Shown here piece by piece: positions 21,493-46,924 of a stretch of DNA of 64,000 nt (positions are counted from its first letter, which is position 1; each line of letters opens with the position of its first letter). The notes below the pieces were generated by a model. The model worked only from the letters and a program-made list of their open reading frames with translations, searched no databases and was not told the origin of the DNA. This DNA comes from Eledone cirrhosa (Eukaryota). Where the stretch lies: assembly GCA_964016885.1 (NCBI GenBank), contig OZ024745.1:114142001-114206000 (forward strand), read 5' to 3'. The translations under genes and the position numbers were made by a program.

Positions 21493-21680
21493 AGGAAAAG
21501 GTATGACCCCGACGGTAGAGATCTTCCGTTTCGACGGCTATTTCTGGAAATAGCCGTCGAAACGGAAGAGCTCTACCGTCGGGGTCATACCTTTTCTTAT
21601 TACCCACTCTACTACCCTAAGTATTGAGTACTCTGTTGCGTTATGGGCCATCTGGTTCCTTACCACAATTCCTTTGTTAT
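21493..21680 (+). mobile_element. (TA)n-flanked foldback element with a hammerhead 3' half (GACCCCGACGG family)
   Basis: Palindrome at 21493-21598 plus tail ATTACCCACTCTACTACCCTAAG; related copies at 23300, 32930, 38843 and 46582. Confidence 0.85.
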
Positions 21681-22081
21681 ATATATATATATATATATAT
21701 ATATATATATATATATATATATTAGTAAAAGGAAAAGAAAAATGCTGACAAATTTTTCCCAGTGAAAAATAGTTTAATTAGGAATAAGTATAAATTAGTA
21801 ATGGTTAGTATTGGTTAGTATTCAGTTTTAGTTTTAAGTTTTTACCGGTTGCGCATTTCTAATGCTTTTCAAAAATAATTTTGAGATAGAGCGCTCGTGA
21901 TGTTTGCTTTAATCTGTATGTATATAAATATATATATAATATATATATATATATATATATATATATATATATATATATATATATATATATATATATATAT
22001 ATATATATATATATACAGGCATACCCATGTTATGGAAATGTTGCGTATTTGAAAATATTGCCGAAATGCGAAACATTTTCT

Positions 22082-22457
22082 CATTGATTTTCATGTTACT
22101 CATTGAAACAAACAAACAAAAAACAAGAAATTACATTAGAGAATACAGGAGAATTGTAATATCGTTCTCAATGCGAAATATGTTGAATGCTGTGAGAGGT
22201 GAGATGGTGTGTAATGGAGATAACTGAGATGATGAGGGAGAGTATCTTCTATTTTAGTCCATCATTATCATTGATTTTCATGTTACTCATTGAAACAAAC
22301 AAACAAAAAACAAGAAATTACATTAGAGAATACAGGAGAATTGTAATATCGTTCTCAATACGAAATATGTTGAATGCTGTGAGAGGTGAGATGGTGTAAT
22401 GGAGATAACCTGAGATGATGAGGGAGAGTATCTTCTATTTTAGTCCATCATTATCAT
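22082..22457. repeat. Tandem duplication of an about 187-bp unit
   Basis: Near-identical units starting CATTGATTTTCATGTTACTC at 22082 and 22269. Confidence 0.95.
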
Positions 22458-22649
22458 TATCTGCATGAAGGATGTAAGACCTATCCAATGTTGTTTGACA
22501 TTTATGGTGTATCATCACTTTGCACAACTGAACACAATCATGATGTTTTATTGTAATTTCTGTTGTGATCACGACTAAGATTCTTATCAGTAAAACTTGT
22601 AGACTTTTCTCTATAAGTGCTAACGTTTTTACAATATTGTCTTCATGGC

Positions 22650-23033
22650 CGTGATTGGCAGTATCGTGGAACAGTATCGGACATGCTATTACGGACCTGT
22701 ACGATCTGAGTTCAAATCTTGCCGAGGTTAACTTTGCCCTTCATCCTTACGGGATCGATAAAAGTACCAGTAATGCACTGAAGTCGATTAAATCGACCCC
22801 CGCCTTGTGCCTAAATAAGAAACCAATATTATCTTCATAAATTGGGCGGTGAATTGGCAGTATCGGGAGAGAGTCGGACGCCATGCTTTCCAGCATAGTT
22901 ACGTCCCTTTACGGACTGAGTTCAAATTCCGCCGAGGTTAACTTTGCCTTTCATCATTACGGGGTCGATAAAATAAAGTACCAGTAATACACTGGAGTAA
23001 TTGCTGGCCTTGTGCCAAATGTAGAAACAATTA
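22650..23033 (+). mobile_element. Two tandem SINE family A copies
   Basis: Diverged copy at 22650-22830; full copy at 22843-23033 flanked by TTATCTTCATAAA duplication. Confidence 0.88.
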
Positions 23034-24046
23034 TCTTCATAAACTGTGTATACAAGTCCTCGACACAGAGAATTCTTCATGGAAGTTCTTATACAAATCT
23101 TTCAATAATCTTTCCTATAAAAGATCATTTTAACTTTGAATGGTGCTTTTAAGTAACTATTATAGATTTCTTTCTGTGTATATAAGAAATCAATGACCAT
23201 ATTAGGAAACTTCAAACAACATAAGCATAGTGTTTCAGATACCCTGATGAGGGACTTTAATAGTCTAGTCTTTAAATACGCACGCACACATATATACATA
23301 GCTGTCGAAACGGCCGGAGCTCAGCCGTCGAAGGTCCTGACTCTTTTCCTATATATATATATATATATATATATACTAGTAGTAGTAACATTGGCAACAG
23401 ATACAAGTTTCGACTTCTACCAAGAGTACCATTCGGGGGTCACAGTTTGGTAGCATTGGGACACAAACGCAAGACCAAGACCATAGAAGAGATATTGCGG
23501 TAAATCTAGTAAGCACCTGGACAAGGGAGGGAGAGGGGCAGCAGTGTGTCTCCCTACACACACATATACATATGTGTGTGTATATATATATATATATATA
23601 TATATATATATATATATATACATATATACACTTATATATACATATATACACTTATATATACATATATATATAATATATATATATATATATATATATATAT
23701 ATATATATATACACTTATATATACACATATATATATATATATATATATATACACTTATATATACACATATATATATATATATATATATATATATACACTT
23801 ATATATACATATATATATATATATATATATATATACACTTATATATACATATATATATGTATATACATATATGAAAATGTGAGTTCGCGTGTAGGTATAT
23901 TTGCGTTTGCGTGTTTATATTGACTTTGAGTTCAAGAAAAATATTTCACTTTTTTTTGTCTCTAAATAGCTCATTATACAAATTTTTAGAAAAGAAAAAA
24001 AATGTTTCTTGAAGTATATTGTTAATGAAGAGTGAGTTGCGGCTGT

Positions 24047-24300
24047 AGAAGAAGAAGAAGAAGAAGAAGAAGAAGAAGAAGAAGAAGAAGAAGAAGAAGA
24101 AGAAGAAGAAGAAGAAGAAGAAGAAGAAGAAGAAGAAGAAGAAGAAGAAGAAGAAGAAGAAGAAGAAGAAGAAGAAGAAGAAGAAGAAGAAGGAGGAGGA
24201 GGAGGGGGAGAAGAAGAAGAAGAAGAAGAAGAAGAAGAAGAAGAAGAAGAAGAAGAAGAAGAAGAAGAAGAAGAAGAAGAAGAAGAAGAAGAAGAAGAAG
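24047..24300. repeat. (GAA)n microsatellite
   Basis: Directly visible; a second tract lies at 27805-27928. Confidence 0.98.
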
Positions 24301-44364: not shown

Positions 44365-44580
44365 GAAGGCGTGTAGATGAGTGGTTAGAGAATTGGATTC
44401 GATATCGTTAGGTTGTGAGTTCGATTCCCGGATCGGGTGATGCGCTATGTCCTTGAGCAAGACACTTTATTTCACGTTGCTCCTTCTACCTGGAGTTGCG
44501 ACCGATAGATAGTATTAGCAACTTGAAAGACCAATGGAAACATTGTTTCCTCGGTCCGATTTGACGAAAGTCAACCTTCC
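44365..44580 (+). mobile_element. tRNA-derived SINE family B (CORE-like domain)
   Basis: GAGTGGTTAGAG A-box region, GAGTTCGATTCCC B-box, TGTCCTTGAGCAAGACACTTTA; other copies at 45652 (minus) and 58389 (plus). Confidence 0.9.
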
Positions 44581-44592
44581 TTTATATACATA

Positions 44593-45216
44593 CTAGCAGA
44601 TTTACCCGGCGTTGCTCGGGGTTTGAAATTATGCTAAGAATATACAGCTAGGAAGTAAAAGAAGAACATTATTTGTCCCCAACCTGTCAAAATAAGCAGA
44701 AGTCTTCAATAATTAATGCAAACGATTATTTAGTGCAATCTTTCTACACATAAATCTATGCTAATAATGAAGGAAAACACTGAACAGGATGTAGTTATGC
44801 AAATGATTAAAGACAATACACGTTGCTAATCTGTAAAAAAAAACAGGCAGTTTTGCTAGCTAAAGTACAAAACGTTGTAATGAAAGCAGAGTTGTATACA
44901 AACGATAATATTAGTGATTTATCTTCAAATAAATGTGATGTTTATATTTCTGAAAAGTTGGTTATCTCCCTTTTTTATGAGGATTGTCAATAAAGTTGGT
45001 TATCTCCCTTACATCAATTTTGCTACCGATAATTTTGATATCGATTTTTTATTGCTCAACGTGGGTCGATTTGAAAAGTGTTTATGATGTGACAATCTTA
45101 GCGACCTGTACAACGTGCACAGAAAATGTGGTCAAATTCAGTTGGTAATTGTAAAAGCCTTAAGTATGCAAAGTTGTACACAGACACACACATCCTCGCT
45201 TTTATGTATATAAAGA
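44593..45216 (-). mobile_element. Non-autonomous Helitron, deletion derivative of the 10811-12513 family
   Basis: Both terminal regions (about 300 bp each) match; helicase remnant absent; CTAG end and hairpin CCCGGCGTTGCTCGGG. Confidence 0.92.
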
Positions 45217-45651
45217 TAAAGATATATTTATATGTATAAGTATATAAATATAAATGAGAAAACACACATACACTAACACAAAACACATACATACACATAC
45301 AGTCACACAAACTCACACAAACACTCACACAAGTGTAGCTAATCTTGGAACGCTCATCGCTATAACACTTCACCCCTTCCTTAATCATTACATAGATGTG
45401 TGTGTATGTAACTAAAGCGTAACGGATGTTACGAACGGACGGAACACAAGCAGAATTATAAGATGAGATGGTCACAACAAATCTAAAATAGGCAAAAGCA
45501 CACCGTTCAAAATACAATTACCCAATAAAATAAAACTGAAATCCAACAGAAACCTAGATACACATATTTCAGTGAAATATATGTAATACGTAATTAAGTG
45601 TGAATATGATGCACTACTGATTCTTTGTTCTTTATTTATTATATATATATA

Positions 45652-45857
45652 TTTTCGTCAAATCGGACCGAGGAAACAATGTTTCCAATGGTCTTTCTAG
45701 TTGCTAGTACTATCTATCGGTCGCAACTCAAGGTAGAAGGAGCAACGTGAAATAAAGTGTCTTGCTCAAGGACATAACGCATCGCCCGGTCCGGGAATCG
45801 AACTCACAACCTCACGATTGGAATCCAATTCTCTAACCTCTCAGCCACACGCCTTCA
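45652..45857 (-). mobile_element. SINE family B
   Basis: Reverse copy of 44365-44570. Confidence 0.9.
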
Positions 45858-46581
45858 ATATATATATATATATATATATATATAGAGAGAGAGAGAGAGA
45901 GAGAGAGAGAGAGAGAGAGAATCGGAAAGTAAGTAAATAAACTTACATAAAGATGGTAAATTCCGATTCCTAATTTGTATACGGTTGTTTCAGAGAGTAA
46001 GAGAAACAGTGCCAAATACCACATAAATGGTACCATTAAGATAAACAAACCCATTATCGGTAGAAATTTGTCTTAGCAAACGCGTTAGAAACGAATAACT
46101 ACCATGGATTCAAAACAGAATGTGAATGCACATGGGGAACCTGTTATAATATAAGGATACTTGTAGGCCAACGGGATTGGTCTAAAATGAAACAGCTTTA
46201 CAAAAATTTTATGTTAGGGGCTGGATTACATATATTAAAATGTTGATTAATACATAAAATTATTAATCATATTATCTGACAAATGTCCACGTCAACTAGT
46301 CCTAACCATAGCCTCTGTTAGACCCTTAAACCAGCTCTACCAAATTAGAATTTTTAAAATGTTCAATGGGAGCAGCAATACAAAAGTTCAACAGTAAGTA
46401 TTGCCTAGGCAAAATGTAACCAAATACCATGATTATACATACACATATATAAGTGCAATAACAAGATCTGAAAGTAAGAAATCGAAATTAAGAATCGATC
46501 TTTTACCATCTTTATTTCAGTTGATTCACTTACTTTCAAATCTTCTTATGTCATTGCACCTATATATATATATATATATAA

Positions 46582-46924
46582 CTACTACTTAGGATAGTAG
46601 AGTGGGTAATAAGAAAAAGTTTGACACCGACGGCAGAGCTCAGTCCAGAAATAGCCGTCGAAACGGCTTGAGCTCTGCCGTCGGGGTCAAACTTTTTCCT
46701 ATATATATATATATATAACGAAGGAAATGTCGTAAGGAACCAGATGGACCATAACGCACCAAAGTACTCAATACTTAGGGTAGTAGAGTGGGTAATAGGA
46801 ACGAGTAGGACCCCGACGGCTGAGCTCAAGCCGTTTCGTCGGCTATTTCTGGACTATTTGAAGACTGTCCAGAATTAGCCGTCGAAACGGCTTGAGCTCA
46901 GCCGTCGGGGTCCTACTCGTTCCT
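46582..46924. mobile_element. Two adjacent GACCCCGACGG-family foldback elements separated by (TA)n
   Basis: 46582-46700 and 46717-46924, each with the family tail (minus) and inverted hammerhead 3' halves. Confidence 0.87.

Follow-up and report, generated by a model that had tools for sequence, protein, structure and literature searches.

Penelope-like elements (PLEs) are retrotransposons whose insertions, as described by Craig et al. (2021; PMC8557442), often include an inverted 5'-truncated copy and a one-sided tail, favor (TA)n targets, and have hammerhead ribozyme motifs in pseudo-long terminal repeats (pLTRs). A purified PLE protein can cut as well as extend both strands of DNA. It initiates reverse transcription at two sites within the RNA, and the interval between these sites corresponds to the tail (Frangieh et al. 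2024; PMC11167929). Here, we analyzed a 64,000-nucleotide stretch of the Eledone cirrhosa genome (assembly GCA_964016885.1; contig OZ024745.1; positions 114,142,001 to 114,206,000 of the forward strand; referred to below as the window), which contains six short copies of one repeat between positions 21493 and 46924, most of them foldbacks (i.e., two arms in head-to-head orientation). These six copies are very probably short insertion products of a Hydra-clade PLE in TA microsatellites, with the foldbacks likely made anew at insertion.

A preliminary description of the window had listed copies at 21493, 23300, 32930, 38843, 46582, and 46717 as a single family. All six were present at these coordinates, were related, and adjoined (TA)n, with the exception to the single-family claim that the 23300 copy belongs to a sister family. 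The shared motif is GAAAC-stem-GUC-GGGGUC. When up to one mismatch was allowed, GCCGTCGAAAC matched the window 7 times (expected, 0.10; 0 of 100 shuffles reached 7) and GTCGGGGTC matched 10 times (expected, 3.19; 0 of 100 shuffles reached 10). A rescan of the whole window with the arm, tail, and end motifs found no seventh copy. At all six loci, an arm ends at TTCCT/ATAT (the slash marks the end of the copy) and is fused into (TA)n, as had been reported. Four copies (21493, 38843, 46582, and 46717) have the foldback layout, and the bases after GGGGTC are identical between the two arms within each of them; 23300 and 32930 are solo arms. If the last T of the arm is numbered 0 and upstream positions in the terminal repeat are negative, the window arms start between -13 and -65 (Table 1). 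The hairpin at 46797-46924 has a predicted folding energy of -74.7 kcal/mol (z = -21).

Table 1. Parts of the six copies, with positions in the window and, where given, in the parent unit
Feature	Positions	Strand	Description
Copy 1 inverted (antisense) arm	21493..21547	-	Unit ~-56 to +2; subfamily ATACCTTTT; BLAST to arm/tail junction query
Copy 1 sense arm	21548..21598	+	3' half of hammerhead motif: GAAAC, helix III, GTC, GGGGTC
Copy 1 tail, 81 nt	21599..21679	+	First 81 nt of next unit, i.e., start of element 5' untranslated region
Copy 2 solo sense arm	23300..23350	+	Sister family (…GGCCGGAGCTCAGCCGTCGAAGGTCCTGACTCTTTTCCT); ends in (TA)n
Single-copy DNA between TA tract and copy 3	32916..32978	.	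Outside element; the supposed decayed 5' half
Copy 3 solo sense arm	32979..33036	+	Unit -57 to 0; subfamily TTACCGGTT; young, identical arms elsewhere
Copy 4 inverted arm remnant	38843..38870	-	Unit 0 to ~-28; subfamily ATACATTTT
Copy 4 sense arm remnant	38871..38885	+	Unit ~-13 to 0
Copy 4 tail	38886..38966	+	81-nt tail
Copy 5 shortened tail	46581..46610	-	Unit +1 to ~+25, then 6 unmatched bases
Copy 5 inverted arm remnant	46611..46642	-	Unit 0 to ~-31; subfamily AAACTTTTT
Copy 5 sense arm	46643..46700	+	Unit -58 to 0
Short (TA)n tract common to copies 5 and 6	46701..46715	.	Two insertions in one microsatellite
Copy 6 tail	46716..46796	-	81-nt tail
Copy 6 inverted arm	46797..46862	-	Unit 0 to ~-65; subfamily CTACTCGTT
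Copy 6 sense arm	46867..46924	+	Unit -57 to 0

The arm and tail are parts of a longer parent unit of 3,554 bp. The arm corresponds to the final ~57 nt of its terminal repeat (pLTR), and the tail to the 81 nt with which the next unit begins. The full layout (i.e., a terminal repeat ending in the arm, the tail, a 5' untranslated region [UTR], a long open reading frame [ORF], a 3' UTR of ~1 kb, and the repeat again) was observed in two loci elsewhere in the genome (L061 and L070), and the arm also continued inwards in some other loci. A tandem array on C1 contains four ORFs at a spacing of 3,531 bp. In L070 and L065-L067, the same 120 to >399 nt precede the 5' UTR and follow the 3' UTR, as pseudo-LTRs do. 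A protein search of the genome with the ORF gave 94,392 first-look candidates with open frames of up to 819 amino acids (aa). Readings of the repeat as a Helitron or as a tRNA-derived short interspersed nuclear element (SINE; A/B box) were dropped once these long coding copies had been found.

The ORF product (P0001) is 721 aa long when counted from the first ATG, and its AlphaFold model has a pLDDT of 86.1. In a structural search with residues 1-483, the top matches were the telomerase reverse transcriptases (RTs) 6zdp_A (Z, 16.5; root mean square deviation, 4.3; 294 aligned residues) and 9swo_A (Z, 15.8), followed by diversity-generating retroelement, DRT2, and R2 RTs. The modeled 721-aa protein is thus predicted to have a telomerase-like RT fold. 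At the C terminus, motifs resembling those of GIY-YIG proteins were read by eye (VIYQC...YIGLT...R..QH). In a homolog with 39% identity (P0002), residues 504-529, which align to P0001 residues ~601-626, matched Pfam GIY-YIG with 26.2 bits (cut-off, 22.6); this domain was recognized by Pfam in 1 of 24 homologs. Judged from these motifs, the C terminus is of a putative GIY-YIG type. Look-alike Atlas clusters carried HTH_animal, DUF8422, and GIY-YIG, and RVT_1 was found in one cluster (92% of it).

The P0001 translation also contains the hallmarks of the Hydra clade of PLEs, which we read by eye against section 11 of PMC8557442 and the printed supplementary alignment: SDKTGN (DKT), LRWR (RWR for RWK), CNCPDRSIC (CxCX5C), CNLC (CxxC), and CKH (CxH), with no CCHH; in the clade, CxxC and CxH flank the conserved E and N. 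By this motif description, the parent is placed as a putative Hydra-clade PLE family. As far as the relevant sections of Craig et al. (2021; PMC8557442) describe the clade, the element shares with it DKT in place of DKG, an RWK-like motif, the CxCX5C linker and the lack of CCHH, insertion into (TA)n, a hammerhead motif near the 3' end, and aquatic invertebrate hosts, which include a mollusc family, Hydra-1_Obim. According to the same sections, clade members are generally <3 kb and Hydra-1_Obim is 2,507 bp, whereas the unit described here is 3.55 kb with a ~1-kb 3' UTR. Hydra-1_Obim is moreover listed there as having "no pLTR," in contrast to the clear pLTRs and tandem arrays of the present element, and the 38-nt loop II and 6-bp helix III of the hammerhead motif are unlike its entry in File S2. 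Its published description sets Hydra-1_Obim apart as a different, shorter family.

Genome searches revealed a large family. The search with copy 6 returned 2,119 first-look candidates, and the 40 that were scored matched nearly the full 231 nt at 92-100% and carried the same CTACTCGTT arms. With copy 3, 911 candidates were obtained, for which the sole recurring part was the arm (query 59/64-121; 92-100%); these arm relatives were mostly foldbacks with TTACCGGTT or TTACTGGTT on both arms. The arm 22-mer GCCGTCGAAACGGCTTGAGCTC had 54,367 exact matches in the genome (reversed control, 0). Among the first 100 listed places of this 22-mer, 36 formed 18 close -/+ pairs 34-54 nt apart, which suggests that, by order of magnitude, 10,000 foldbacks with both cores intact are present in the genome.

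The association with TA tracts was assessed in an unselected sample (40 stretches of 10 kb plus the window), of which the element covers 1.6%. Copy 3' ends abutted a TA tract in 23 of 24 cases, compared with 6.5% of random positions, so that the suspected excess of TA adjacency is real; copy anatomy in this sample was the same as in the loci selected by searches. (TA)4 was present on both sides of 47 of 55 foldbacks with a tail and on the tail side only of the other 8. Tracts of (TA)n with at least 4 units (196 tracts) occupy 6.4% of the window, an unusually high load. Copies 5 and 6 (46582-46924), which belong to different subfamilies, lie 15 bp apart in a single TA tract, indicating repeated hits on the same microsatellite; the same applies to L016/L017 and L139.

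The typical insertion is a stub made of two head-to-head 5'-truncated copies of the terminal repeat (arms, ~57 nt) with the 81-nt tail on one side. We compiled 70 nonredundant head-to-head pairs from loci that were partly selected by similarity searches. The tail was on exactly one side in 66 pairs, on both sides in 2 (one of these is the foldback in the center of L086), and on neither side in 2. Arm starts clustered around -57 (115 of 140 between -65 and -51), and the two arms of a pair differed in length by no more than 8 nt in 51 of 70. Copies end at two fixed sites, ...TTCCT/AT and ...CGTTA/T, both adjoining (TA)n, and one arm of a foldback nearly always ends at one of them and the other arm at the other. 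Equal arms of other lengths also occur (e.g., 92/92 nt in L027). An old copy from a related subfamily (L106:1591-2260) is a palindrome with arms of 330/330 nt, a 9-nt gap, and 94% complementarity, which indicates that the arms are equal even when long. Overall, the arms are 5' truncated and range between 13 and 330 nt in length.

More complex insertions follow the same pattern. Seven composites (L136-L142) consist of an inverted arm, an arm followed by the initial 123-912 nt of the unit, and again an arm plus tail, with every segment starting at -57 to -61, as if cDNA synthesis had jumped from the 5' end of one RNA into the body of another. The one-sided tail or the inverted truncated copy at the 5' side was also observed in L061 and L069. 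Between subfamilies, the tail (window 21599-21679, 38886-38966, and 46716-46796; L033, L045, L152, and L154) has an identity of 0.86-0.96, compared with 0.75-0.93 for the outer arm. As a candidate structured RNA signal, the tail had a predicted fold no better than that of shuffled sequences (z = 0.66).

This anatomy corresponds to that of endonuclease-containing (EN+) PLEs, for which the passages of PMC8557442 on pLTR insertions describe an inverted 5'-truncated copy abutting a sense copy and an extension at one end only. Likewise, the two fixed 3' ends match the two internal start sites of reverse transcription in the in vitro system, in which both strands are cut and extended and the target is AT rich (PMC11167929). 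The anole element of that study has a start site that lacks homology to the cut DNA, whereas 2-3 nt (UAU) per start site could here pair with the TA target. The present tail is also longer than in EN+ PLEs (81 nt versus 30-40), and the commonest product differs from theirs in being a minimal stub of ~200 bp, the arms of which both stop at ~-57. In L1 twin priming, both ends of the break prime cDNA, which yields an inverted 5' part, and different parts of one RNA are used without duplication. Priming of cDNA by both DNA ends and the resulting inverted 5' part would be common to L1 and the present copies; the difference is that the same 57 nt occur here in both orientations.

Evidence on the origin of the inversions comes from the central junctions, which differ among near-identical young copies. 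In an alignment of 61 foldback-plus-tail elements, the youngest group (11 copies; 1.18 differences per 177 columns outside the center) had 10 junctions, and a second young group (8 copies; 0.88 differences per 177 columns) had 8. The larger groups had 19 junctions in 25 copies (CTACTCGTT) and 8 in 13 copies (TTACTGGTT). The inversion is thus made per insertion, as the preliminary description had proposed. Moreover, diagnostic bases of arm and tail are common to foldback groups and coding copies (e.g., GCTGTCGGGG plus ACCTCAAG in L070, L065, and 11 foldbacks), indicating that foldbacks were made repeatedly from contemporary coding lineages.

The strongest competing explanation is that the foldback is a nonautonomous unit (retrozyme- or SINE-like), the hairpin transcript of which is copied by the Penelope enzyme, so that the inversion is inherited and only its tip mutates. 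In its favor, each strand of a foldback terminates in a proper 3' end of the element, the arms are very uniform in length, and some junctions occur repeatedly (4 of 13, 4 of 25, and 3 of 25 copies); nonautonomous derivatives of PLE repeats are also proposed in a 2026 preprint (10.64898/2026.07.22.740005). Nevertheless, the numbers of junctions in the young groups, which are <1% diverged, are too high for point mutation, and an independent lineage would need to track the changes of the coding subfamilies, including the diagnostic bases given above. There is also no fixed inherited asymmetry between the arms, and foldbacks with other equal arm lengths (92/92 and 330/330) exist. We therefore consider amplification as a unit unlikely.

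A second possibility is that the arms were unlike at insertion, or that a single arm was inserted, and that a palindrome was later made or kept uniform by DNA repair or gene conversion. This would account for the agreement of the window arms at bases that differ between loci, and the same agreement had been taken earlier as proof of inversion per insertion, with the bases after GGGGTC regarded as locus specific. The match between the arms of each foldback was upheld, but the locus specificity was not: the variants CTACTCGTT, TTACCGGTT, TTACTGGTT, and others each occur in many copies, including long or coding ones, and the bases that differ between window loci are therefore inherited subfamily markers and not per-locus events. 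Accordingly, arms group by subfamily, i.e., not by side, which agrees with the earlier expectation, and not by locus, which does not. We compared arms in 52 of the 55 foldbacks, using a 47-nt arm segment and loci picked by similarity to the queries. In 24 CTACTCGTT elements, arms differed by 2.08 within a locus versus 2.14 between loci, which removes the basis of the earlier reasoning from arm bases. The differences within this subfamily were scattered single changes (50 asymmetric versus 1 symmetric). These results indicate that arms drift freely after insertion with no sign of homogenization, and this explanation is very improbable. Finally, a miniature inverted-repeat transposable element derived from a cut-and-paste DNA transposon, with ~57-bp terminal inverted repeats and a TA target duplication, would fit the TA-flanked inverted arms and the long copies resembling arm, 3 kb, and arm, but can be dismissed as refuted by the RT fold (rather than a transposase fold) predicted for the internal ORF and by the asymmetric tail, which places one element end 81 nt outside the "inverted repeat," in addition to arm lengths of 13 to 330 nt with 5' truncation and direct (tandem) repeats of the same sequence that also flank ORFs.

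The window arm contains only the 3' half of the hammerhead motif of the terminal repeat, in agreement with the preliminary description. In long copies, the 5' half (ACCCC, (C/U)UGAG(G/A)A, and the 5' strand of helix II) lies ~45-70 nt upstream of the 5' limit of the arm. The order in these copies is ACCCC, the heptamer, GAUCGGCUA, a 38-nt loop, UAGCCGUC, GAAAC, a 6-bp helix III with a 7-nt loop, GUC, and GGGGU, and the predicted cut site is 18 nt before the arm end. The ACCCC-heptamer-helix II half was found in no window copy; it lies beyond ~-100, upstream of all of the window arm starts. The three-helix structure (type I order, I-core-II-GAAA-III-H-I) was paired in 89.4% of 517 cells from 20 long copies, compared with 21-48% for slid partners. 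Because the copies are closely related, little covariation was seen (both sides had changed in 2 pairs). GAAA and GUC are conserved in the core.

The heptamer varied among 43 pattern hits (UUGAGAA, 16; CUGAGAA, 12; CUGAGGA, 5; UUGAAAA, 2; other singles, 4; not this site, 4). The canonical combination of ACCCC and CUGAGGA, which a full-length consensus had been expected to recover, does exist, but in a minority of copies, and all five CUGAGGA copies came from loci fetched with a pattern requiring CTGAVGA (13 matches, 6 real sites). A search for CCCTGATGA upstream of the arm gave 2 matches, neither of which was a real site. We surveyed the core variants in long copies (L061, L070, L075-L094, L106, and L153), with the canonical ones having been fetched with the biased pattern. 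C3-G8 was observed with ATACTTGTT arms and in a few CTAC copies, C3/A8 in most CTACTCGTT copies, and U3-A8 in TTACCGGTT/TTACTGGTT copies, L106, and the sister family. The part of Cervera and de la Pena (2014; PMC4209133) on such variants gives U3-A8 as a natural variant of the C3-G8 core pair; C3 with A8, in one large subfamily, cannot pair and is outside the published natural variants.

The same study (PMC4209133), in the parts concerning PLE pseudo-LTR hammerheads, describes a type I layout in the terminal repeat, the U3-A8 variant, and motifs that are often paired on opposite strands 100-700 bp apart, together with scattered truncated copies, all of which resemble the present family. The differences from the "minimal" form described there, with a helix III of 1-2 bp, are the 6-bp helix III with its 7-nt loop containing GAGCTC, the very long loop II, and C3 with A8 in one large subfamily.

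The two solo arms require separate comment. The left part of the 32930 locus had been read as a decayed 5' half of the hammerhead. This stretch (32912-32980) occurs once in the genome, and its local alignment score with the element was 14, versus 12.6 ± 1.5 for shuffled sequences, i.e., at chance level. The locus is a solo arm joined to ordinary, unrelated DNA, and the earlier reading is not supported. An origin of the left part from the 3' UTR of a long interspersed nuclear element was also rejected because the stretch is unique. The 23300 arm differs from the main family in helix III and in its arm end. A search for its sister family gave 441 candidates, and these relatives have the same tail and foldback layout; the long form carries ACCCC-UUGAUAA, and helix II shows a compensating G-C to A-U change relative to the main family.

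How might such stubs be made by a Hydra-clade PLE? Both cut DNA ends would prime reverse transcription close to the 5' end of the element RNA. The two fixed ends would represent two internal start sites of RT, ...UUCCU/AU and ...CGUUA/U, of the kind measured in vitro for another PLE. Position -57 would be the putative 5' end of the RNA, so that transcription would begin within hammerhead loop II; arm starts at -57 and composite segments starting at -57 to -61 are both expected if the RNA has a discrete 5' end. The cDNAs from these 5'-proximal sites would run off after 57-140 nt and hence lack the CUGANGA half. A template jump or snap-back would then link the ends of the two run-off cDNAs, with some added bases at the joint, so that the arms come out equal and the junction is unique. 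A TATA-like TATTTAAATA is present 29 nt before the proposed start, ...TTTA/GTCCAGAAT, in no subfamilies other than the TTAC ones.

With somewhat less than even confidence, we propose that transcription of the element may start in its own hammerhead loop II, ~57 nt before the end of the repeat. The mRNA would then have half a ribozyme at the 5' end but a complete one at the 3' end, and, because both RT start sites would be situated a short distance downstream of this 5' end, the commonest product would be a run-off cDNA pair joined head to head by a template jump from end to end. If this is true, the foldbacks, of which the genome has ~10,000 or more, are a natural record of where transcription starts, of both RT start sites, and of PLE priming from two DNA ends; the passage of the core from C3-G8 via C3/A8 to U3-A8 among subfamilies would show continued selection on the ribozyme.

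Several observations weigh against parts of this account. With regard to the transcription start, the CTAC subfamily has TATTCATTTA in place of the TATA-like TATTTAAATA, the upstream repeat of long copies selected by their ORF starts at -115 to beyond -399 rather than at -57, and only 7 exact genome matches were found for foldback-junction copies that start near -57 and pass the tail. Shared junctions, such as TGGACCAG in 4 of 13 copies, may mean that some foldbacks were copied as units or that this junction is favored. For the protein, Pfam gave no match, including RVT_1, on the ORF proteins themselves, a sequence profile of the 24 homologs had 0 matches in PDB, and the fold search covered residues 4-481 of the 721. 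As for the ribozyme, core position 8 is A and not G in most copies, which also separates the element from the Hydra clade. The Rfam hammerhead models gave no match in the window at the gathering score, none at the expected site in L061/L070 at E values up to 10, and none in the five CUGAGGA copies at E values up to 1; the 38-nt loop II may be the reason for these misses.

Two other hammerhead-like motifs were noted. A complete one from another family is present at 63296-63385 (+) in the window (GGCU-CUGAUGA-ACGC-loop-GCGU-GAAA-CAGACUGU-C-AGC). It was found by a simple descriptor and missed by Rfam at the gathering score, lies within a long outer helix (UUUCGGCGGAAGUAGGGGAG... / ...CUCUCCCUUCUUUCGCCGAAA), and has no adjoining TA tract. 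In L046, a canonical-looking hammerhead of an unrelated family (…CCUGAUGAGUCCG…CGGACGAAACC…) lies ~80-160 nt to the right of the foldback. The window also contains two copies of a SINE-like repeat at 22620-23000 (…GAGTTCAAAT…CCGAGGTTAACTTTGCC…ATCGATAAAA…TACCAGTAAT…), which is found beside elements in L019, L030, and L150 as well, and a tandem duplication of ~185 bp at 22080-22450 (…CATTGATTTTCATGTTACTCATTGAAACAAACAAAC…).

Under the interpretation that the copies are PLE insertion products, the "half ribozyme in a mirror" is explained as the ordinary footprint of a known class of retrotransposons, so that neither a novel RNA nor a novel mobile element should be claimed from the stubs. With their constant ends and individual junctions, the stubs constitute a large natural data set on PLE insertion, covering the two start sites, both DNA ends, and template jumps. 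To our knowledge, in vitro work on this insertion process has so far been limited to a single vertebrate element. The subfamilies likewise provide a natural series of core variants (C3-G8, C3/A8, and U3-A8) for ribozyme assays. What the family may add to present knowledge of PLEs is its scale, the 81-nt tail, the sharp limit at -57 with its possible meaning, and this core-variant series.

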